64,000 nucleotides of DNA, from contig OY821641.1 in the NCBI GenBank assembly GCA_963555995.3, positions 2,432,001 through 2,496,000 of the forward strand. Reading direction: 5' to 3'. The translations under genes and the position numbers were made by a program. Of the stretch, positions 15,447 to 28,520 are shown in pieces. The DNA is from Vicinamibacteria bacterium. GTDB taxonomy: Bacteria > Acidobacteriota > Vicinamibacteria > Marinacidobacterales > Marinacidobacteraceae. The notes under the pieces were generated by a model. It saw only the letters and a program-made list of their open reading frames with translations, was not told the origin of the DNA and searched no databases. The stretch's first letter is position 1. Every line of letters starts with the position of its first letter.

Positions 15447-17960
15447 TTGACGAAGCTCCCGTTCGGGATGGGAAGCGGCGGGCGATTCAGGTATCTTCCG
15501 TCGGTTAGGGCAATGGGCGCGGTTCTTCTCTTCTGGTTCGCTCTGCTGGGGCAGCCCCCGGAGGACGGTGCGTCCCGCGCGGCGCCCTCCCCCGAGCCCG
15601 CGGCCGCCGTCCCCGCCAACACGGCGGAACTCACCGGCGTGGTGCAGCGCTACTGCGTCGTCTGCCACAACGAGCGCCTCCGGACCGGGAACCTCACGCT
15701 GCGGGAGTTCGCCGTGGACACGGCGCACGAACAGGCGGAGACCGCCGAGAAGATGATCCGGAAGCTGCGGGCCGGGATGATGCCGCCGCCGGGCCAGCGC
15801 CGCCCGCCGCCCGAAACGCTGCTCGCCCTGGCCGAGACGCTCGAGACCGTGGTGGACGGCGAGGCCGCCCGCTCGCGGAACCCCGGCTCGCGGCGCTTCC
15901 AGCGGCTGAACCGCGCCGAGTACGAACGCGTGATCCGCGATCTCCTCGATCTCGACATCGAGGCCGGCCGCTGGCTGCCGGCGGACACCTACCTCGGCGC
16001 CTTCGACAACATGTCGGACGCGCAGGGACTCTCGACGACCCTCCTCGAGGCCTATCTGAGGGCCGCCACCGAGGTCAGCCGGATCGCCGTCGGCAACCCG
16101 GACGCGCTCTCGAAGACGGCCAAGTACACGAATCCGATTGATGTCTCGCAGCACGCCTGGGATCACCTCGAGGGCGCGCCGTACGGGACGCGCGGCGGGA
16201 TGGTGGTCACCCACGATTTCCCGGTGGACGGCGAGTACGTGATCTCGATCGAGACGCTCTTCGGCCGGGGGACCGGCTTCCAGGACGTGGACATTTCCAT
16301 TGACGGGGAGGGCGTCGCTCTCCTCGGACTCGAGCACGGCGGCCGCGCGACGGTGCCGATCCGCACCGAACCGATCTTCGTGCGGGCGGGCCAGCGCCAG
16401 GTCGCGGCGGCCTTCGTGCGCACCATCGAGGGGCCGTACGAGGACCCCCTGAAGACGCCGGGCTGGTCCTTCGTCGGCGGCGAGGACTCCCAGGCGTGGG
16501 CGAACTACGGGATCACCGCGCTGCCCCACCTGAGCGAACTGATGATCACCGGCCCGCACCGCAGTCAGGGGCTCTCGGAGACGGCGAGCCGCCGCAGGAT
16601 CTTCCACTGCTATCCGGAGGATGGGGCGGCGGTGGCGGACGTTTCCGAGGAGTCTCGGGCGTGTGCGAAGTCGATCGTGACCCGGCTCGCCCGCGAGGCG
16701 TACCGGCGTCCGGTCACGGACGAGGATCTCGCCGGGCCGATGGCCTTCTACGACCGCGCCGCCGCGGAGGACGGGTTCGAGATCGGCGTCCGGACCGCGC
16801 TCCAGGCGATCCTCGCCAGCCCGTCCTTCATCTTCCGTCTCGAGCAGGCGCCGCCGGAGGTCGTGCCCGGCGAGAGCTACCGGATCGCGGACCTGGACCT
16901 CGCGTCGCGGCTCTCGTTCTTCCTCTGGGCGGGGGGCCCGGACGACGAACTGGTGACGCTCGCCGCGGAGGGACGGCTCTCGGACCCGGCGGTTCTCGAG
17001 TCGCAGGTGCGGCGGATGCTGGCGGACCCGCGGGCCGTAGCGCTTTCGACGCGCTTCGCCTCGCAGTGGCTGCGGCTTCAGGACGCGGAGGACAACCAGC
17101 CCGAGCCCTATCTCTATCCGGACTTCACCGGCCAGCTCCGCGAGGACCTGGTCCGTGAAACGCAGCTCTTCTTCGACCACCTCGTGCGCGAGGACGGAAG
17201 TCTGCTCGAACTCTTCACGGCGGACTACACCTTCCTGAACGAACGCCTCGCGGCGCACTACGGCATTCCCGGGGTCTCGGGGCCCGAGTTCCGGCGGGTG
17301 CGCTACCCGGACGACACCCGGCGCGGCGTGCTGGGGCACGGCAGCGTGCTGCTGCTCACTTCCATGTCCGCGCGCACGTCGCCGGTCCTGCGCGGGAAGT
17401 GGGTGATGGAGGTGCTGATGGGTACGCCGCCTCCGCCGCCGCCGCCCGACATCCCCGCCTTCGAGGACACCGCGGCGGCCCGCCGCGGGCGGCGGCTCAC
17501 CACGCGCGAGCGGCTCGAGATGCACGTCGCGAATCCGACCTGCCGCGCCTGCCACCGGTTCATGGATCCCATCGGGCTCGCGCTCGACAACTACGACGTG
17601 ACCGGGCGGGTCCGGGTTCGTGAGAACGGCGTCGCGCTCGACACGCGGGGGACCTTCTACGACGGGACCGAGGTGAGCACGCCCGCCGAGCTCGTCGCCG
17701 TCCTCATGAAAAGGCCGATCCCCCTGGTCCGGAACTTCACGGAACACCTGCTCGCCTACGCGACCGGACGCCGCGCGGAGTACTTCGACGGGCCCGGGAT
17801 CCGGGCCATCGCCCGCGAGGCGGAGGCGGGCGGGTACCGCATGTCCTCGTTCATCCTCGGCGTCGTCAACAGCGACCCGTTCCGCATGGCGCGTCCCGCG
17901 CCGGCGGCGGACAATCTGGCAGAATCAGCAGCTCCAAAGGGAAGCGGAGAGGGCTCATGA
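15447..17960 (+). CDS. DUF1592/1587/1588/1595/1585 multidomain protein with haem-c-type motifs (start may be 15513)
   Basis: [40 protein letters not shown] and CRACH..MDPIG.ALDN motifs. Confidence 0.88.
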
Positions 17961-19381
17961 ACTTCATCACCCGGAAACACCTCCCGCGCCGCACCTTCCT
18001 GCGGGGGGCGGGCGCCAGCGTGGCGCTACCGCTGCTCGACGCGATGACTCCCGCCGGGCTGTGGGCCGCCCCGAAGAAGGCGGCGGGGTTCACGCGGCTC
18101 GTCGCCATCGAGGAATCCATGGGCGTGGCCGGCTCGAGCGACTGGGGCGACGACCGCCACCTCTTCGCGCCGGCGAAGACCGGACGCGGCTTCGAACTGG
18201 TCGCGGACAGCCAGCTCAAACCGCTGGAAGCGTTCCGCGAGTACATGACCATCGTGAGTAACACCGACTGCCGCTCGGCGGAAGCGTTCCGGGCGGAGGA
18301 GATTGGTGGCGACCACGACCGCACGACGGCGGTGTTCCTGACCCAGGCCCATCCGAAGCAGACCCAGGGGTCCGACATCTTCATCGGCACCTCGCTCGAC
18401 CAGTTGCACGCGCAGCGCTTCGGGCGCGAGACGGTGCTCCCCTCGCTCGAGCTCTGTATCGAGGGCATAGACCGCGGCGGCGGCTGCGCCTACAACTACC
18501 ACTGCGCGTACACCACCTCGCTCGCGTGGGCCACGCCCAGCCTGCCGCTCCCCGCGATCCGCGAGCCGCGCGTCGTGTTCGAGCGGCTCTTCGGTGCCGG
18601 GGACACGGCGGCGGACCGGGCGGCGCGGCGCCGCACCGACCGCAGCATGATTGACTGGATCACGACCGAGGTCGCCCGGCTCAAGGGGACCCTGGGCGCC
18701 GCGGACCGGGTCGCCCTCGACGAGTACGTCGAGCACATCCGCGAGATCGAACGGAGGATCCAACTCGTCGAGGCGCGCAACACAAGCGGAGAGGAACGGG
18801 AGATGCCGGAGGCGCCCTCCGGGGTCCCGGATTCCTTCGTGGAGCACATGCAGTTGATGTTCGACCTGCAAGTGCTCGCGCTGCAGACCGACCTCACGCG
18901 CGTCATCACCTTCAAGACGGGCTTCGACCAGTCGAACCGGACGTTCCCCGAGAGCGGGACGACGAAGTCCGTCCACGGGGCCTCGCACCACGGCAACGTC
19001 CCCGAGGACATCATGGACTTCAACCGGATCAACGCCTACCGGCTGGGCCAACTCGCCTACTTCCTCGAGAAGATGCGCAACACGATGGAAGGCGACGGCT
19101 CGCTGCTCGACAAGACGGCGATCCTCTGGGGCTCGGCGATGGCGGACGGGAACCTCCACAACCACCGGCGGGCGCCGCTGCTGCTGCTGGGCCGGGCGAA
19201 CGGGGCGCTCGAGGGCGGCCTCCACCTGCGGGCCCCGAAGGGGACGCCGATGGCGAACGCCTTCGTGAGCCTGATGCGGAGGATCGGACACCCGGAGATG
19301 GACACCTTCGGCGACAGCGACGGCGTGTTCCCGCTCGACCTTCCGGACGAGGCGGCCACCGCCGCGAGCGTCTCCGCATGA
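17957..19381 (+). CDS. DUF1552 (HXXSHH) family protein with Tat signal
   Basis: PRRTFLRG.G...ALPLLDAM, PR.VFERLFG, DLTRV.TF and HGASHH motifs; ATGA overlap with the upstream gene. Confidence 0.88.
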   Translation: MNFITRKHLPRRTFLRGAGASVALPLLDAMTPAGLWAAPKKAAGFTRLVAIEESMGVAGSSDWGDDRHLFAPAKTGRGFELVADSQLKPLEAFREYMTIVSNTDCRSAEAFRAEEIGGDHDRTTAVFLTQAHPKQTQGSDIFIGTSLDQLHAQRFGRETVLPSLELCIEGIDRGGGCAYNYHCAYTTSLAWATPSLPLPAIREPRVVFERLFGAGDTAADRAARRRTDRSMIDWITTEVARLKGTLGAADRVALDEYVEHIREIERRIQLVEARNTSGEEREMPEAPSGVPDSFVEHMQLMFDLQVLALQTDLTRVITFKTGFDQSNRTFPESGTTKSVHGASHHGNVPEDIMDFNRINAYRLGQLAYFLEKMRNTMEGDGSLLDKTAILWGSAMADGNLHNHRRAPLLLLGRANGALEGGLHLRAPKGTPMANAFVSLMRRIGHPEMDTFGDSDGVFPLDLPDEAATAASVSA

Positions 19382-21321
19382 AAGTCGCCGTTTCGCTGCT
19401 GGTAGCGGCAACCCTCCCGCTGGTTGCCGGCGCGGACGAGCGGCTGCTTGCCGCCGCCCGCGACGGGCAGACCGCCGTCGTCCGGTCCCTCCTCGAAAAG
19501 GGGGCGGACGTGAACGCGGCGCGCGGCGACGGACTGAGCGCGCTGCACTTCGCCGCCGAGGGCGGTCACCTCGCCGTGACCGAGGCGCTGGTGGCGGCCG
19601 GCGCCGCGGTGGACACCGGAACCCGGATCGGTGGCTACACCCCGCTCCAGATGGCGGCGCGGGGCGGGCATGGCGCCGTCGTCGCCCGCCTCCTCGAAGC
19701 CGGGGCGGACCCGAACGCCCGGACCACGAACAGCGGCGTGACCGCACTGCACCTCGCGGCCGCCGCCATCGGGGGCGAGTCGGCCGTGGCCGCGCTGCTC
19801 GACCACGGCGCGGAGCCGAACGCCCGCGAGGAGTCGGCGGGACAGACCCCCCTGTTCTTCGCGGCGGCCGCGAACCGGGCCGTCGCGACGGCCGCGTTGC
19901 TCGCCGCCGGCGCCGACCCCGGGATCACGACCGCGGTGGTGGATGTCCTGCCCACGCTGGCGCTGGACCGGGAAGCCAACCGCCGCTTCCGCGAAATGAT
20001 CGGCGCGCCGCCGCAGCGGATGGGAATGTACGGGCCCCGGGTGGACCCGGACGCCGAACCGCTGGGCGAGCCCAGCCCGGCCCAGGTCCAGGCGGCCATC
20101 CGCGCGCAGCGCGAGTTCCTCCGTTCCGGCCACGACGTCGGTGAGGTGAACCCGCACTCGCTCGGCCGCGTCGGGCCCGACTACCCGGGCGGTCCCGACC
20201 TCGTGCGCCCGCCCTACCGCGAGGTCCTCGTCGGCCGGACCGGCGGACTGACCGCGCTGCTGCACGCCGCCCGCGAGGGCCATGTGGAAGCCGCGACGGC
20301 CCTCCTCGACGGCGGCGCGGACCTCGACCAGGTGAGCGCGGACGGCACCAGCCCCCTCCTGATGGCGGCGCTCAACGGCCAGTTCGACCTGGCCCTCGCC
20401 CTCATCGAGCGCGGGGCGGATCCCGATCTCGGCACCTCGACGGACGGGGTCACGCCGCTCTTCGCCGTCCTCCAGACCCAGTGGGCGCCCAAGTCCAACT
20501 ATCCGCAACCGCGCGCGCAGGACCTGCAGGAGGCCGAACACCTCGACGTGCTCCGCGCGCTGCTCGACGCCGGGGCCGATCCCAACCCCCGCCTCAACAC
20601 CCACCTCTGGTACTGGGAATACGGTCTCACCAAGATGGGGATTGACCTCACCGGAGCGACGCCCTTCTGGCGGGCCGCCTTCGCCCAGGATCTCGAGGCG
20701 ATGCGGCTGCTCGTCGCGCACGGAGCCGATCCTCACACTCCTACCCGCTGGCCCGAGGTCGGGATGCGGGAGCGCCGGCAGCAGGACGGCCGCCAGCAGG
20801 AGGACTCCGCGCTGCCGTGGATCCCCAAGGGGGCGCCGAACGCCTGGCCGATCCACGCCGCGGCGGGGGGCGGATACCTGGGACTGGGCGCGTTCAGCGT
20901 TCGGAACGAGCCCGACCAGTTCCTTCCCGCCGTGAAGTACCTGATCGAGGAACTCGGCGCGGACGTGAACCAGCGCGACTCCTGGCTCTACACCCCGATG
21001 CACTACGCGGCATCACGGGGCGACAACGAGCTCATCGAGTACCTCGTGTCGCTGGGCGGGGACGTCACCGCGATCACCCGCCTCGGGCAGTCCACCGCCG
21101 ACATGGCGCGCGGAGGCCGGGCCGGGTTCTTCACCCGCGTCCCGTACCCAGAGACCGTCGAGCTGCTCCAGAGTCTCGGCTCGACGCTCGAGTGCCTCCA
21201 CACCCACTTCCTCGACACCGGAGACTTCTGCTCCGGCGCGGGCATGGACGACCCGTGGGCGCCCACCGCGACCGACGCGGAGGAAAAGCCCTCCGATTCC
21301 GGAAAGTCCGGACCCCGCTGA
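19378..21321 (+). CDS. Exported ankyrin-repeat protein
   Basis: Signal peptide plus many G.TPL/TALH..AA..G repeats; ATGA overlap with the upstream gene. Confidence 0.9.
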   Translation: MKVAVSLLVAATLPLVAGADERLLAAARDGQTAVVRSLLEKGADVNAARGDGLSALHFAAEGGHLAVTEALVAAGAAVDTGTRIGGYTPLQMAARGGHGAVVARLLEAGADPNARTTNSGVTALHLAAAAIGGESAVAALLDHGAEPNAREESAGQTPLFFAAAANRAVATAALLAAGADPGITTAVVDVLPTLALDREANRRFREMIGAPPQRMGMYGPRVDPDAEPLGEPSPAQVQAAIRAQREFLRSGHDVGEVNPHSLGRVGPDYPGGPDLVRPPYREVLVGRTGGLTALLHAAREGHVEAATALLDGGADLDQVSADGTSPLLMAALNGQFDLALALIERGADPDLGTSTDGVTPLFAVLQTQWAPKSNYPQPRAQDLQEAEHLDVLRALLDAGADPNPRLNTHLWYWEYGLTKMGIDLTGATPFWRAAFAQDLEAMRLLVAHGADPHTPTRWPEVGMRERRQQDGRQQEDSALPWIPKGAPNAWPIHAAAGGGYLGLGAFSVRNEPDQFLPAVKYLIEELGADVNQRDSWLYTPMHYAASRGDNELIEYLVSLGGDVTAITRLGQSTADMARGGRAGFFTRVPYPETVELLQSLGSTLECLHTHFLDTGDFCSGAGMDDPWAPTATDAEEKPSDSGKSGPR

Positions 21322-21346: not shown

Positions 21347-21503
21347 GCGCGCCGACCGGGACTGGTCTTCAGACCGGCACGCGGGCCGGAGGCCCGCCAA
21401 ATGCGTCGGGCCGCACATCCTGACGGCGCGCCGGCTTGGAACGCCGGTCTCCGACCGGCACGCGCGGCGCTCCGCGCCGCGCACGTCGTAACTCCATTCA
21501 CGC
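21347..21503 (+). repeat. Two REP-like elements (family A: GGCTTGGAACGCCGG-loop-CCGGCAC plus a second GC hairpin)
   Basis: 21433-21485 is near-identical to 39847-39899 and to the reverse complement of 40820-40873. Confidence 0.75.
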
Positions 21504-21525: not shown

Positions 21526-21668
21526 ACATGTCGCACTAGCCCGTCCTCTGGAAGGAATGTGTCGCTGTACCCGAATCTGCGGGAGAAACATGCAGCAGTA
21601 GCGGAGCTGGCTGGTCGGGTACATGTCGCAGTAGCGGGGTCAGCCGTAGAGCGACATGTAGCAGTACG
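21526..21668. repeat. Interspaced mini-array: 5 x 15-bp repeat (consensus ACATGTCGCAGTAGC) with 16-18-nt unique spacers
   Basis: Repeats start at 21526, 21557, 21588, 21621 and 21654 (periods 31, 31, 33, 33). Confidence 0.7.
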
Positions 21669-21676
21669 CTGTCGCC

Positions 21677-22879
21677 ATGGCCGAAACCGGAAGCCGGCGG
21701 ACGGACCTCCGGAACGCGATCCGGGAAGAGGGTTTCCGCCTCGGCTTCTCCGCGGTCGGCTTCGCCCCGCCCCGGCTCCCGGACGCGGGCGAGCGGTTCG
21801 AGGAATGGCTCGCCGGCGGCAACCACGGGACGATGCATTGGATGGCCCGCGACCCCGCCCGGCGGAGCGACGCGGCCAGCATCCGCGACGGCAACGGAGA
21901 CTCGGCCCGAAGCACCGAGAGGACCGTCATCGCGTGCGGCCTCAACTACTACGCGGGCAGTCCGGCTGCCGCGCCACCGGGCGGCGGAGTGATCTCGCAG
22001 TACGCGCGGGGCGAGGACTACCACCGGGTGCTGGATGCGAAGCTCCGCGCCCTCGCGGCATTCGCCGAGTCCGCCGCCGTCGAAGCCGGACTGCTTCCCG
22101 AACGCCCGCCCGGCGCCCGCCGACGCATCCCGACCCTGGTGGATCACGGACCCCTGCTCGAAAAGGCGTTCGCCCAACGGGCCGGCCTCGGCTGGGTCGG
22201 CAAGCACTCGAACGTGATTGCGACCCGCGGCAGTTCCTGGTTCTTCCTCGGCGAGATCCTGTTCCCCGTGGACCTGCCGTCCGACGACCCGCATCCGAAC
22301 CGTTGCGGCACCTGCTCCCGCTGCATGGCCGCCTGCCCCACCGGCGCCATCGTCGAGCCCTACGTGGTGGACAGCCGGCGGTGCATCTCCTACCTCACCG
22401 TCGAACTCCGGGGACCCATCCCGGTCGAGTTCCGGAGGGCCATCGGCAACCGCATCTTCGGCTGCGACGACTGCCAGGACGTCTGCCCGTGGAACCGCTT
22501 CGCCGGGAAGGCGGAAGAACCCCGGCTCGCTCCGACGCCGGACGGGCTCCACACGGAGACGCTCATCGCTCTGCTTCAACTCACTCCCGAGGAGTTCCGC
22601 GTTCGCACCCGACGGAGCGCCGTCCGCCGCGCGGGCTACGCCGGCTTCCTTCGGAACGTCGCCGTCGCACTCGGCAACGTGGGCGGTCCCGGGGCGTTCG
22701 AGGCCCTCACCGAAGCGCTGGACCATCCCGAGCCCCTCGTCCGCGGCCACGCGGCGTGGGCGCTCGCCCAAAGGGATCCGCAGCGGGCGGAACCGCTCCT
22801 GGCGGCGCGGCTCTCCCGCGAACGCGATTCCGCCGTGCGGTCCCAACTGAGCGCTCTCACCGGTCTCTACACCGCCTGA
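21677..22879 (+). CDS. queG: tRNA epoxyqueuosine reductase
   Basis: HGTM.WM, ISQYARGEDYH, VD.GP.LEK, CGTCSRC..ACPT, CISYLT.E, FGCDDCQDVCPWN motifs and a HEAT-like tail. Confidence 0.95.
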   Translation: MAETGSRRTDLRNAIREEGFRLGFSAVGFAPPRLPDAGERFEEWLAGGNHGTMHWMARDPARRSDAASIRDGNGDSARSTERTVIACGLNYYAGSPAAAPPGGGVISQYARGEDYHRVLDAKLRALAAFAESAAVEAGLLPERPPGARRRIPTLVDHGPLLEKAFAQRAGLGWVGKHSNVIATRGSSWFFLGEILFPVDLPSDDPHPNRCGTCSRCMAACPTGAIVEPYVVDSRRCISYLTVELRGPIPVEFRRAIGNRIFGCDDCQDVCPWNRFAGKAEEPRLAPTPDGLHTETLIALLQLTPEEFRVRTRRSAVRRAGYAGFLRNVAVALGNVGGPGAFEALTEALDHPEPLVRGHAAWALAQRDPQRAEPLLAARLSRERDSAVRSQLSALTGLYTA

Positions 22880-22932: not shown

Positions 22933-23028
22933 GCCCGCCTGCCGGCCCGAACTTATGTGATTCAGCCCGTCTCCCGGCCCGAACTTATGTGATTCGGCCC
23001 GCCTGCCGGCCCCAGCTTGTGTGATTCG
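22933..23028. repeat. Tandem repeat, 3 x 32 bp (GCCCGCCTGCCGGCCCGAACTTATGTGATTCR)
   Basis: Units start at 22933, 22965 and 22997; the array overlaps the 3' end of the methyltransferase gene. Confidence 0.85.
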
Positions 23029-24536
23029 CCCACCGCGAAGAGTGCTCTCGATAGCGGGACGCCGGCCTCGTTTGCGATGCTCAAGGCCAGATGATCGGGA
23101 ACGGGCAGTCGCTCGAGGTTGCGAGGCTCTACCTTGATGGCTCCGCCGCCGTAGGACTTGCCGACGAGTCGAAGGTTCTGGATTGTTTCGGGCGCGTTCA
23201 GGACACGCCACAGGTTGTCCACGGAGTCTGCGAAGCGGGGGTGCGGATACACGCAGAGGAAACAGGTCAACGGCACGACTCCGGCCCGGTTGCGCACGAA
23301 GCGGGAGTTACGGCGACCCAGATAGGCGAAGAGCAGCGGGGGCGGGGTACGCCTCTCCATGCGGTACCAGGGGCGCCGCGTTCGAAGCAGCGCCCGGCGG
23401 TTGAGTCCGTCCTGCTCGCCGCGCCGAATGTACTCCCTGAGTCGTGGTGGCAGGTCATCCGGCGCCTGTCCGTCCAGGCAGAGGAGGTACGTGGGGCGTC
23501 CCGCCCCCTCCAGGCGTTCCAAATCCTCCACTTCCAGAACGTCACCGGGGACGTCCCGGGTCCTGCCAACCACCAGGCGCAGCATCTCCTCGGGAATCCC
23601 TTCCGCCTCGGCCTGCTGCCGGGTAAGCCAGAAGAACGCATTCGCGCCCGTCGCGATCCCACGGCGAACAGTGGCGAAGTCACCGAGCTTGAATCGCGTC
23701 TGGACCGTCGCTGGCGGGCGCGAGAGACCGGTCGTCACGCCCTCGTCCACATCACGATCCGTCCGGTCGAGTGACAGAGGCAGGGAAGAGCGCAGGCCGC
23801 GCTGCATGAGGAGCGTGAGATCCGGTGTCTCGGCTTCGCGGCACCTGATCCAGGCAAACCGCCTCCGCGGCGGTGCGTTCCGGATCATCAGGATCACCGC
23901 GTTCGTATCGACCCCCGGAAACGGCGTCGCATCGGGGTCGAACGCCACCACCGCGTCGAGCCGGAATCGGGACGCGATCCAGGTCCAGAGATGGCGCGCG
24001 AAGACTCCCTCGCAGGTGTCTGCCGGAACGATGAACGCCAGCCGGCCACCCTCCTCCAGCATCGAGAGCGCGCGGATCAGGAAATACACATGGAGTCCGG
24101 CCCGTCCGTCCAGCGGCCGGCCGATTTCGCGGAGACAGAGCTCCCGCAAGGCATTCTTGATGTGGGCGGGGAGGCGGTGGTGGCGGATGTACGGCGGATT
24201 CGCCACGATTGCGCCATAGCGGCCGGGCGGCGGATCCAGGGCGAAATCGCGTTGCTCCACGCGGCAGAAGGGCTTTCCGAAGATCTCGCCTCGCAGCAGT
24301 GATTCGTCAATGTCGGTGCCGAAAAACGTTCGCTCGTCGGACTCCTGCCTGAGCGCCAGGAAAGCCTCGAAGAAGGCCCCGCCGCCGACGGCCGGGTCGT
24401 AGAGGACCGACGAATCGCCCCGCATCGCGTAGGCGACCATCGCCCGCGCGACCCACGGCGGGGTCCAGAACTGGCCCTTTTCCCGGAGCTTCTCGCGGCT
24501 TTCCCAGTCGGTGGGAAGGGAGCTAGAGCTACTCAC
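22962..24536 (-). CDS. N6-adenine DNA methyltransferase (gamma class, type II RM, AccI/Eco57I-like)
   Basis: GQFWTP, DPAVGGGAF, NPPY, GGRLAFIVP, RGIATGAN.FF and YGGG..K.EP motifs; GTG at 24536 is the probable start. Confidence 0.88.
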   Translation of the reverse strand: MSSSSSLPTDWESREKLREKGQFWTPPWVARAMVAYAMRGDSSVLYDPAVGGGAFFEAFLALRQESDERTFFGTDIDESLLRGEIFGKPFCRVEQRDFALDPPPGRYGAIVANPPYIRHHRLPAHIKNALRELCLREIGRPLDGRAGLHVYFLIRALSMLEEGGRLAFIVPADTCEGVFARHLWTWIASRFRLDAVVAFDPDATPFPGVDTNAVILMIRNAPPRRRFAWIRCREAETPDLTLLMQRGLRSSLPLSLDRTDRDVDEGVTTGLSRPPATVQTRFKLGDFATVRRGIATGANAFFWLTRQQAEAEGIPEEMLRLVVGRTRDVPGDVLEVEDLERLEGAGRPTYLLCLDGQAPDDLPPRLREYIRRGEQDGLNRRALLRTRRPWYRMERRTPPPLLFAYLGRRNSRFVRNRAGVVPLTCFLCVYPHPRFADSVDNLWRVLNAPETIQNLRLVGKSYGGGAIKVEPRNLERLPVPDHLALSIANEAGVPLSRALFAVGESHKLGPAGGPNHISSGRETG

Positions 24537-24539
24537 CAA

Positions 24540-24662
24540 AATCACGTCGTCGAGTCGCTGCAACGCCTCGTCGGGGAAAGAGATCACACCGCCCCGGAAG
24601 CGCACATAGGGGAGGATCTGTCCGTTCTTGTCCTTGATGAATTCCGCTACAAGCTCGGGTTC
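24540..24662 (-). pseudogene. Probable C-terminal remnant of an AccI-family restriction endonuclease
   Basis: EPELVAEFIKDKNGQILPYVRFRGG resembles, from memory, AccI-family C-termini; directly precedes the methyltransferase; no N-terminal part is visible. Confidence 0.45.
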
Positions 24663-24724
24663 GGATGTCGAGGTCGCCAGATCGGATTCTGACTCTGAAC
24701 CCCGACACAAGTTGACACGACGAG

Positions 24725-25096
24725 CTATCGGTTGGTCCGTTGCGCCGGCGAATCCGGAGTCCAGAACAGGTTGGCGCCCGCACCGGCTGAGTCGGGCTGG
24801 CGGACGTAACGCTCGGGGATGCCGTACTCGTCGCCGTAGGCCTTGACCGTCTCCCGGATTGCCACCGCAAGCCGTGGCTCTACGCCCTCGAACGCGCCAC
24901 TGCAGTTCATCGCTTCCGCGAGCCACTCCCCCAGTTCGCTTTGCCCCCGCTCATCCATGATGTCCCGGACCTCCATCAGGGCGGCGCCAACGGCGTATTC
25001 CACGAAGAGTTCCGCGAGCACGGCGTCATCGAGGGTCACGGCTCCGTCGCGCATCGGGTGTCCGTAGCTCAGACAGTCTGGGGGTGGCTTGGCCAT
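24725..25096 (-). CDS. Hypothetical acidic protein (123 aa)
   Basis: GGAGGG ribosome-binding site before ATG 25096; protein-like composition; no recognised motif. Confidence 0.5.
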   Translation of the reverse strand: MAKPPPDCLSYGHPMRDGAVTLDDAVLAELFVEYAVGAALMEVRDIMDERGQSELGEWLAEAMNCSGAFEGVEPRLAVAIRETVKAYGDEYGIPERYVRQPDSAGAGANLFWTPDSPAQRTNR

Positions 25097-27042: not shown

Positions 27043-27843
27043 TCAGGCGGGCAGCAGCAGCGTGAGCAGTTCCTCGCGGGTGAGGAGCGTCTGGGGACCC
27101 TCCAGAAAGGGCGCCACGTCGGCGCGGACGGACTCCCAGGACATGGTCTCCACCCGCCGCGCCACCGCGGGGCGCCAGGTTTCTCCGGTCAGCGGGGCCG
27201 CCGCCGGCTTCGCCTGCCGGAGCGCGGAGTTCAGCAGGCGGAGGTTCGGCGGCGGCCAGCGCCGGTCGGCGAGATACCACCCGAGGTCGTACACGTCGCG
27301 CCCCTTGGCGTACGGACGGCAAAGGACCGCCGCCAGCTTGCCGGCGAGGAGCGAGGCGCGGTCGTGATGGCGGAGGCGGACGGTGACGTGCCGCTGGACC
27401 GTCCGCGTCTCGACCACCGCTCCCGCCGGCGGATTCGCATCCACCTCGATCTTGATGGCCAGCTTCTCCGTGGGATGCGGGGAGAGGCGCGCTTGGTAGA
27501 GGAGACCCGGAAAGCGCAGCCACCCCGCGTGTACCACGCCCTGATCGCGGAGCACGGATTCGATCTCGTAGCCCTCGCCGAGGAACTGGCGCGCCACCCC
27601 GAGCAGCCAGCCCTCAAGGTCATAGGCATTCCGGTCCGTTTCGAGCGCGAAGTCGAGATCCTCGGAGTAACGCGGCATCAGGAAGAGGAACCGGAGCGCC
27701 GTTCCGCCGCAAAAAGCCAGCGGACGGGTTGCGCCCCGGCGCTGGAGTGACTCGAGGATGCGGGCCTGCAGGTATTCGCGCAACACGTTGCGCCCCTGCC
27801 CCGGCGGCGCCTCGCGCGCCAGTTGCAGCGCCAGATCCCTCAC
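27043..27843 (-). CDS. AbiEii/AbiGii nucleotidyltransferase toxin (type IV toxin-antitoxin)
   Basis: FCGGTALR, RYSEDLDF, IKIEVD, K..A...R and KGRDVYDL motifs. Confidence 0.92.
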   Translation of the reverse strand: MRDLALQLAREAPPGQGRNVLREYLQARILESLQRRGATRPLAFCGGTALRFLFLMPRYSEDLDFALETDRNAYDLEGWLLGVARQFLGEGYEIESVLRDQGVVHAGWLRFPGLLYQARLSPHPTEKLAIKIEVDANPPAGAVVETRTVQRHVTVRLRHHDRASLLAGKLAAVLCRPYAKGRDVYDLGWYLADRRWPPPNLRLLNSALRQAKPAAAPLTGETWRPAVARRVETMSWESVRADVAPFLEGPQTLLTREELLTLLLPA

Positions 27844-28484
27844 GGCGTCAGTTTCCGGAACTTCAGCGCCGGGTCGTCCACGCGCGAGCCGAGCACGCCG
27901 GCCGCCCGCCGCAGTTTCGGGCTCCCGGCAGCCGTCGCGAGCCGCATCAGCTCCGCAGAGGAGAACGCCTCCAGATCCAGCCGCAGTTCGTCAATCCAGG
28001 CCGGGTTGTCACCGTCGGGATGGAACCAGGCGAGATCCAGGAACGCCTTCTCGGGGGTGGCGACGAAGGCGTGCCGGCCACGCAGGACTTCCACCCGCCG
28101 GTAGCCGGTCCGCAGGGCGGGCTTCAGGTAGCGGCAGGAGAAGCGTCCCATCGGGGTCTCCCGGCGGAACGGGCGCCCGGGGCCGCAGCTCGTGGTCTCG
28201 AAGACGGCCTCGGGGATCGCGCCGTAGTGGGCGAGCGCGGCCACCCCGCTGACGTAGCTCCCGGGCGACAGGCGGTTGGCGACGATGAAGGGATGCGGGA
28301 ACGTCTTCCGGTAGGGGGGCGCGAGCGCGTAGAGCCCGCGGCGGAGCTGGACGACCTTCCCCGCCCGCCGCCAGCGGTCGAGCTGGCCCGGAAGGGCGGC
28401 CGGGCGCGACTCGTCGGCGGCGAGGAAGCCCGTGTCGAACAGGGGTTCGTCGCCGACGATCTGGAGGAGGGTCTCGAAAAACAT
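27840..28484 (-). CDS. AbiEi-family antitoxin / transcriptional regulator
   Basis: LRRGLY, SYVS..AAL.HYG.IPE and ATPEKAFLD motifs; GTGA overlap with the toxin gene. Confidence 0.88.
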   Translation of the reverse strand: MFFETLLQIVGDEPLFDTGFLAADESRPAALPGQLDRWRRAGKVVQLRRGLYALAPPYRKTFPHPFIVANRLSPGSYVSGVAALAHYGAIPEAVFETTSCGPGRPFRRETPMGRFSCRYLKPALRTGYRRVEVLRGRHAFVATPEKAFLDLAWFHPDGDNPAWIDELRLDLEAFSSAELMRLATAAGSPKLRRAAGVLGSRVDDPALKFRKLTP

Positions 28485-28520
28485 TGCGGTAACTATACAA
28501 ATACGCATAGATCACGCAAT
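28483..28520 (-). promoter_or_regulatory. Promoter and inverted-repeat operator of the abiE operon
   Basis: ATTGCGGTAACTAT-N10-ATAGATCACGCAAT (11/14 inverted match); minus strand reads TTGCGT-N16-TATAGT-N7-ATG. Confidence 0.6.

Follow-up and report, generated by a model that had tools for sequence, protein, structure and literature searches.

A short array upstream of queG in a Vicinamibacteria genome is a copy of a genus-wide satellite with a candidate winged-helix protein partner

Directly upstream of queG, in a window of 64,000 nucleotides from a Vicinamibacteria bacterium (contig OY821641.1), five short and similar sequences follow one another at nearly regular intervals. A sequence-only reading of the window had called this array CRISPR-like, and had listed as explanations a phased set of protein-binding sites, a processed small-RNA or guide array, and a tandem repeat that has decayed around a conserved core. 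What kind of element is the array at queG, and does it have a partner elsewhere in the genome? We compared the genome of the window (G000, 93% complete; G-numbers denote genomes and L-numbers loci) with other genomes, which are kin and 66-95% complete, so that the unit counts given below are lower bounds.

The array at queG and its neighbourhood

The cores, their periods and the spacers between them are as the sequence-only reading had given them, as are the REP element adjoining the array on its left and the 8 nt that separate its end from the ATG of queG at position 21677 (Table 1). Linkers of 16 or 18 nt lie between the 15-nt cores, and the GC content is 0.70. Seven matches to the core (≤3 mismatches) were found in the window, compared with a mean of 0.72 in shuffled sequences, and four of the seven are in the array at queG, a clustering in excess of chance. 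Contigs spanning the array came from three runs, representing two samples of one study, with no listed difference.

Table 1. Location of the array upstream of queG and of associated features. Positions are those of the window, except in the last row, which gives contig coordinates.
Feature	Location	Strand	Remarks
Family-A satellite, five 15-bp cores, periods 31, 31, 33 and 33	21526..21668	+	Short, degenerate member of a 31+33-bp tandem-repeat family
Core 1	21526..21540	+	
Core 2	21557..21571	+	Most diverged of the five
Core 3	21588..21602	+	
Core 4	21621..21635	+	Agrees with the genus consensus
Core 5	21654..21668	+	3' end merges into the queG leader; leader conserved in relatives
REP element	21431..21488	+	Member of the genome's ~250-copy family; neighbour, outside the satellite
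queG (epoxyqueuosine reductase)	21677..22879	+	QueG Pfam match; marker of the orthologous locus in relatives
Family-F satellite, three cores, 32-bp period	22950..23026	-	Far side of queG
F-linked winged-helix gene	C1:2589677-2590804		In G000; candidate family-F partner

An ankyrin-repeat gene lies on one side of the array and queG on the other. The former is the last gene of a three-gene operon (window positions 15447-21321) located directly upstream of the REP element and the array. On the far side of queG, the family-F array overlaps the 3' end of a minus-strand ORF (22962-24926) for an Eco57I-like methyltransferase, and queG is bracketed by satellites of two families, A and F. The window also encodes an AbiEi/AbiEii type IV toxin-antitoxin pair (27043-28508, Pfam-confirmed), and no link between the array and this neighbouring pair was found.

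Two other identities of the repeat were considered and rejected. A coding role was discarded, as the long overlapping ORFs resemble artefacts of high GC content and the reading frame is not maintained across periods of 31 and 64 bp, a point on which we agree with the sequence-only reading of the 31-bp periods. The genome contains a single RAYT (Y1_Tnp) gene (C1:750600-752700, L067) with long tandem REP arrays on both sides. Because RAYT is flanked by the REP family instead of the core repeat, a RAYT link was rejected, and with it a REP/REPIN identity; the RNA fold signal of the array is no better than that of shuffled sequences (z -0.16).

A satellite shared across the genus

The array upstream of queG, with its five units, is one copy of a satellite of 31+33 bp that is genus-wide, here named family A. 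A scan of the genome and its relatives for the 15-mer, which the sequence-only reading had proposed, retrieved further arrays in G000 and in the genus; among the kinds of adjacent gene that it had listed for tabulation, no link to AbiEi and no Nop-domain protein were found. A single genomic occurrence, one of the observations that it had named as counting against its reading, does not apply, since two more A arrays, both short, are present in G000 at C1:598599 and C1:3138204. The paired A pattern was detected in 13 out of 15 genomes of the same genus, in one out of nine other genomes of the family (a two-unit match) and in none of 16 genomes of other families. Among species-representative genomes, 36 A loci were retrieved, all in MAGs titled Acidobacteriota and several in Ca. 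Marinacidobacterium, and no A pattern was found in viral contigs.

The array is retained at the queG locus in at least five genomes, with five units in G000, seven in G010, 17-18 in G003, 19 in G013 and 10+5 in G001, where it is split by an IS21 element. A arrays located elsewhere in the relatives reach ~86 units, in which periods of 31 and 33 bp alternate for the most part. The spacers had been described as unrelated and unique. Compared with the relatives, however, each of them matches linkers of its own length class (best matches 14/16, 15/16, 16/18 and 14/18), with a mean identity exceeded by only 0-3 of 200 shuffles. In the relatives, the linkers form two homologous classes, of 16 and 18 nt, which are identical in tandem. 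Within arrays, the core is about half as variable as the linkers (0.05 versus 0.09-0.11), a comparison in which the selection of units mildly favours the core.

In some places, one core family gives way to another. At L044/L076 (G001) and L053/L054 (G013), an A array runs straight into an array of family B with a similar linker. At one orthologous site, family A is found in G014 (L048) and family I in G000 (C1:2908169).

Satellite families of constant length

Tandem-repeat and autocorrelation scans of G000 showed a peak at a period of 32 bp. About 20 further intergenic arrays were identified in this genome, belonging to families E, F, I, H and D (~32 bp) and to families G and J (~21 bp). Families A, D, E, F, H and I share the 32-bp period and differ in sequence, and most families of G000 have a similar frame around a family-specific middle. 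Overall, periods of 31-33 bp were found, as well as 21, 32+21 and 64 bp. Families F, E, G and I, for which there are resident genes, dominate the genome. At least four tandem units, an intergenic location and several families of the same period per genome, the features that define constant-length non-coding satellites, were all found. The arrays are not concentrated near the origin or terminus of G000; they are present on both replichores in mixed orientation.

The sequence-only reading had remarked that the periods correspond to about three helical turns and had proposed a phased protein-binding array. This option gains support by inference from the spacing of the arrays, together with the candidate cognate protein family described below. 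In arrays located beside winged-helix genes, 412 out of 446 core-to-core gaps (the detector admits gaps of 15-70 bp) deviate by no more than 1.6 bp from a multiple of 10.7 bp, compared with an expectation of ~30%.

A winged-helix protein family beside the arrays

Six paralogues of one protein family (~270-380 residues) were found in G000, each of them next to a satellite. Four are preceded by an array with a 32-bp period, and the other two are followed by one with a 21-bp period; no seventh paralogue was found in G000. All 15 genomes of the genus contain the family, as do 20 of the 24 genomes of the taxonomic family, and it was found in none of 16 others. A sample of the phylum gave matches in three genomes out of 300 others, at loci that resemble larger fused genes. 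We retrieved 77 family matches, from which 11 weak or fragmentary ones were dropped, leaving 66 for analysis. Six of these were excluded from the adjacency count because of short flanks (four of the six had an array). A phased non-coding array was detected beside 53 of the remaining 60 family genes and was absent beside seven, compared with 16 of 1,025 other size-matched genes of G000 (22 of 1,031 when the six paralogues are counted in).

The proteins consist of basic amphipathic N-terminal helices, a proline linker and a Fic-like C-terminal winged helix, with no catalytic domain. The C-terminal domain has a sub-threshold Pfam match to PF21247 (Fic-like_C; E 3e-4 to 9e-3). Its model has a pLDDT of 89.6, and the best Foldseek match is 4rgl, a Fic C-terminal domain (E 3.7e-3). 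With VIA-align, the winged helix ties with many DNA-binding winged helices (Z 8-9), and AspA of pNOB8 is among its weak fold matches. The N-terminal ~130 residues are predicted to form long helices (pLDDT ~55-78), followed by the disordered proline linker. The hydrophobic moment of the N-terminus is 0.37-0.46 in 11 out of 12 proteins, the exception being a protein whose start was called too late, and the maximum among 300 background proteins is 0.36. No transmembrane segment was predicted in the N-termini. A DNA-binding fold and an amphipathic helix within one protein, the combination expected of a membrane-DNA anchor, are thus predicted for this family.

A search with the N-terminal region yielded 30 proteins, none of which has a name; where a Pfam label is given, it is PF21247 and no other. 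PADLOC assigned none of 33 proteins to a family, neither query protein was present in the ESM Atlas, and no relative was confirmed in viral contigs.

Pairing of core sequence and protein clade

We placed the 66 proteins in a tree, which is based on 92 columns and has many weak forks. Core families map onto its clades, that is, core sequence tracks protein clade. The same upstream neighbour gene was also found beside genes of different clades carrying different arrays. Given that covariation of gene and array is expected from linkage alone, we sought evidence from unlinked arrays; the cross-genome counts cover families A, E, F and I only. The three-core pattern of family F was present in one out of 25 genomes, G000, which holds the only F-clade gene of the tree, and six F arrays of this genome are located away from that gene. 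The E and I patterns were present in three and four of the 25 genomes, respectively. Neither was found in the near-closed genomes G001, G004, G008, G009 and G013, where E- and I-clade genes were not found either.

The nearest homologues outside the family are Schlafen-type proteins (AlbA_2-HATPase_c_4), which often carry repeats within the gene. Repeats of 7 or 14 residues stand just before the domain in 36 of 124 scoreable domains of distant homologues, and a DNA repeat of 21, 22 or 33 nt precedes the domain at 12 of 25 metagenome loci, versus two of 148 control windows. At L186, the in-gene repeat agrees with the core of family D at 14 of 16 bases, and the recognition helix is nearest to that of the D clade. 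Two comparisons stand against the pairing. When in-gene cases were crossed with stand-alone proteins, the partner with the nearest helix shared the core in only one of six cases (L186), and the correlation across the test was rho 0.34 (permutation p 0.0065, two near-duplicate rows included). For genes that stand alone, core similarity is predicted only slightly better by the recognition helix than by the remainder of the domain (rho 0.25 versus 0.21). On the whole, the linked protein likely recognises the adjacent core family, and the heptad repeats before the Fic-like domain may be DNA sites and not just linkers. Such 7-residue (21-nt) repeats before a Fic-like winged helix in Schlafen/AlbA_2-HATPase_c_4 proteins were seen at L169-L171, L182-L205 and P0001-P0150.

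There are exceptions to the pairing. L169 has an A-like in-gene repeat, yet a dissimilar recognition helix. In G009, 29 near-perfect A units were counted, and no A-clade gene was found, only one of the related M clade; in G014, which has 13 A units, neither an A- nor an M-clade gene was found. In G013, B arrays accompany a gene of the M clade, and no B-clade gene of this genome is in the tree.

The queG copy as a likely orphan

An A array lies upstream of an A-clade gene in five genomes (G001, G004, G008, G011 and G013). These kin genomes contain at least 27-254 A units, with 0.1-0.8 mismatches per unit, compared with about 10-12 units and 1.2 mismatches per unit in G000. The interval of G000 orthologous to the A-gene locus, as mapped from four of these five, contains neither the array nor the gene. 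Given that no A-clade gene was found in G000 and that its A arrays are short and degenerate, the queG copy has likely been orphaned, and it is best described as a likely orphaned, shrinking array of putative binding sites. Taken alone, the five-unit array is probably a decaying, non-functional copy. The decayed-repeat option listed by the sequence-only reading also fits this copy.

Proposed mechanism and its main competitor

On balance, we favour an explanation in which the cores are cognate sites of the winged-helix proteins, phased for binding on the same face of the DNA. The C-terminal winged helix would bind direct-repeat cores two or three turns apart, and the array next to the gene would act as operator and loading site. 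The basic amphipathic N-terminal arm of ~130 residues would bind the inner membrane surface, where occupied arrays would be tethered or compacted. Unlinked arrays would spread and lengthen while the cognate protein is present, and would shrink or switch core after its loss. Attachment of the arrays to the membrane through the winged-helix protein is a prediction from the modelled fold and helices.

The strongest competitor, which we nevertheless regard as unlikely, is a neutral minisatellite of variable copy number that arose from the heptad-coding repeats of ancestral Schlafen/Fic-type genes, accompanies the winged-helix gene by linkage, and grows or shortens through slippage and unequal recombination, with no bound protein. 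The range of 5 to 19 units at the queG locus, the homology of the linkers, a core only about twofold better conserved than they are, and the well-kept A arrays of G009, where no A-clade gene was found, would all be expected from such a process. It fails to explain, however, why periods are multiples of the helical turn across ~20 families, why unlinked F arrays are limited to the genome with the F gene, and why a 21-nt repeat within a gene and a 32-nt array upstream of one have a 14-bp core in common, along with a similar recognition helix.

A broader version of the favoured protein-binding explanation is put forward as a tentative possibility, and we lean against it as a whole. Satellites and membrane-binding winged-helix proteins would form modules of a new class of chromosomal system, with several specificities per genome, which seed unlinked arrays, tether or sequester them at the membrane and draw IS21 insertions; the in-gene heptads of Schlafen/Fic genes would be the same sites and the general origin of the satellites. 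A role in defence or addiction is conceivable in this setting, with DNA restraining a membrane-active protein for as long as the DNA itself is retained.

IS21 insertions in the satellites

Insertion sequences are recurrent in these arrays. IS21 (IstA/IstB) was found at loci L032-L087 and also at L115 and L125, with IstB confirmed. In G001, G008 and G013, 20 out of 24 exact right ends of IS21 lie in phased satellites, one of the 20 being inferred from coordinates. The insertions affect several satellite families and fall at differing points of the repeat unit; wherever both ends could be identified, there is a 5-bp duplication. Bound protein, DNA shape or tolerance of insertion may account for the preference. 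Several long A arrays (L034, L038 and L066) adjoin a second insertion element, which is possibly IS630-like, judging by the target it seems to use. We found no description of IS21 targeting satellites in the literature searched, in which subscription journals are thinly covered.

These insertions could mean that the arrays serve chiefly for the landing or recombination of mobile DNA, through IS21 insertion or cassette exchange, with gene and array forming a selfish module. The concentration of IS21 right ends, the eroded IS ends that abut both other A arrays of G000 and the presence of different modules at the same locus are in line with such a role. Against it, only two of the eight istB copies of G000 lie within 400 bp of an array, foreign genes are not significantly enriched beside the arrays compared with other long intergenic regions (p 0.14), and no relative was confirmed in viral contigs. 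As the main explanation it is decidedly improbable, and it is compatible with protein binding, not exclusive of it.

Relation to known systems

Noc with its NBS sites and RacA with ram are membrane-DNA anchors, and RocS is reportedly another. RicO/ricS of Staphylococcus aureus is a further example (10.64898/2026.03.06.710092). The proteins described here resemble RicO, RocS, Noc and RacA in combining, by prediction, a sequence-specific DNA-binding domain with an amphipathic membrane region, and in having dispersed sites. They differ in that several paralogues per genome are associated with different cores, in tandem phased arrays instead of single sites. Moreover, the gene lies beside its own array, turnover from species to species is rapid, and the amphipathic region is N-terminal and ~130 residues long. 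Unlike RicO sites as described, the arrays show no bias towards the origin or terminus.

Plasmid iterons and centromere-like direct-repeat arrays are bound by winged-helix Rep or centromere-binding proteins. As in those systems, phased direct repeats stand here beside a winged-helix gene, and protein and site diversify together. Unlike iterons, the arrays occur on the chromosome and at many loci; no Rep, ParA or replicon genes were seen next to them, and no plasmid match was found. A plasmid iteron origin of the queG array was rejected: its neighbours, the ankyrin gene and queG, include no Rep gene, and a GC content of 0.70 does not fit an AT-rich unwinding region. In how it works, the array would resemble RicO/ricS or an iteron while being a member of neither class.

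The closest precedent for the arrays themselves is found in Bacillus, where non-coding satellites have constant lengths of 20-21 and 52 nt (Subirana and Messeguer, PMC8161180). Their authors propose a protein that requires a constant repeat size, and name none in the Discussion; satellites of constant length and variable sequence, with a proposed protein dependent on repeat size, are also described in PMC6749651. The arrays reported here are similar to the Bacillus satellites of PMC8161180 in that several families per genome have one length and different sequences, with periods near whole turns and a lineage-restricted distribution. They differ in their periods of 31-33 bp and in the linked candidate protein that covaries with the core. 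The satellite class is already known, and a linked protein partner of multiple specificities was not found in the literature searched. Neither a satellite-protein pairing nor these particular satellites were found there; subscription journals are thinly represented, and the supplementary catalogues of Subirana could list related families.

The protein family, in turn, resembles Fic, Schlafen and AlbA_2-HATPase_c_4 proteins in its weak PF21247 match and its fold match to 4rgl. Unlike in Fic and Schlafen proteins, amphipathic helices and a proline linker take the place of the catalytic domain, and the repeats are outside the ORF. Constant-length bacterial satellites lack a known binding partner in the account of PMC8161180, and the protein family, the ~20 protein-core pairs and the orphan case make the idea testable. 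If binding is true, the pairs would constitute a natural series from which to read the recognition code of a winged helix, the heptad 'linker' repeats of many Schlafen/Fic genes would have to be reread as DNA sites, and a preferred target class of IS21 would have been identified.

Guide-array and operator readings of the queG array

A guide array of the CRISPR or TIGR type, or an array processed into small RNAs, is a very improbable explanation. It is suggested by the repeat-spacer look and the 64-bp dimer period, and G000 does have a separate, conventional CRISPR array with a 61-bp period (C1:1462147-1466141), unrelated to the core repeat. CRISPR repeats are ~25-36 nt long, with spacers of similar size (PMC12045711). 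Cores of 15 nt and linkers of 16-18 nt are too short for such an array, as the sequence-only reading had itself recognised, and in place of unique spacers there are two homologous linker classes. TIGR arrays are built from 36-nt units with two alternating repeats of 8-12 nt and variable 9-nt spacers (PMC12045711), whereas the array at queG has a single core type with periods of 31 and 33 bp. No match to the Nop domain (PF01798) was found in G000 (93% complete), hence no adjacent Tas gene, and no other effector gene was found. The spacers gave no match to phage or plasmid DNA, in a search to which lengths of 16-18 nt lend little sensitivity, and the one Rfam match was at chance level and outside the array. 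Given the homologous linkers, tandem in relatives, these blank searches and the lack of an RNA fold signal, the guide or small-RNA framing of the sequence-only reading is unsupported; likeness to CRISPR and TIGR ends at appearance.

A dedicated cis-regulatory operator of queG, which the end of the array 8 nt before the start codon and its retention at the locus in at least five genomes might suggest, is barely credible, as family A occurs at many unrelated loci in either relation to the neighbouring genes, the array is split by IS21 in G001, and no sigma-70 promoter-like site was found. The queG locus of G013 is represented twice. In the copy on the small contig C1 (L009), queG has an apparent internal deletion compared with the copy on C4, possibly reflecting contamination or a strain variant.
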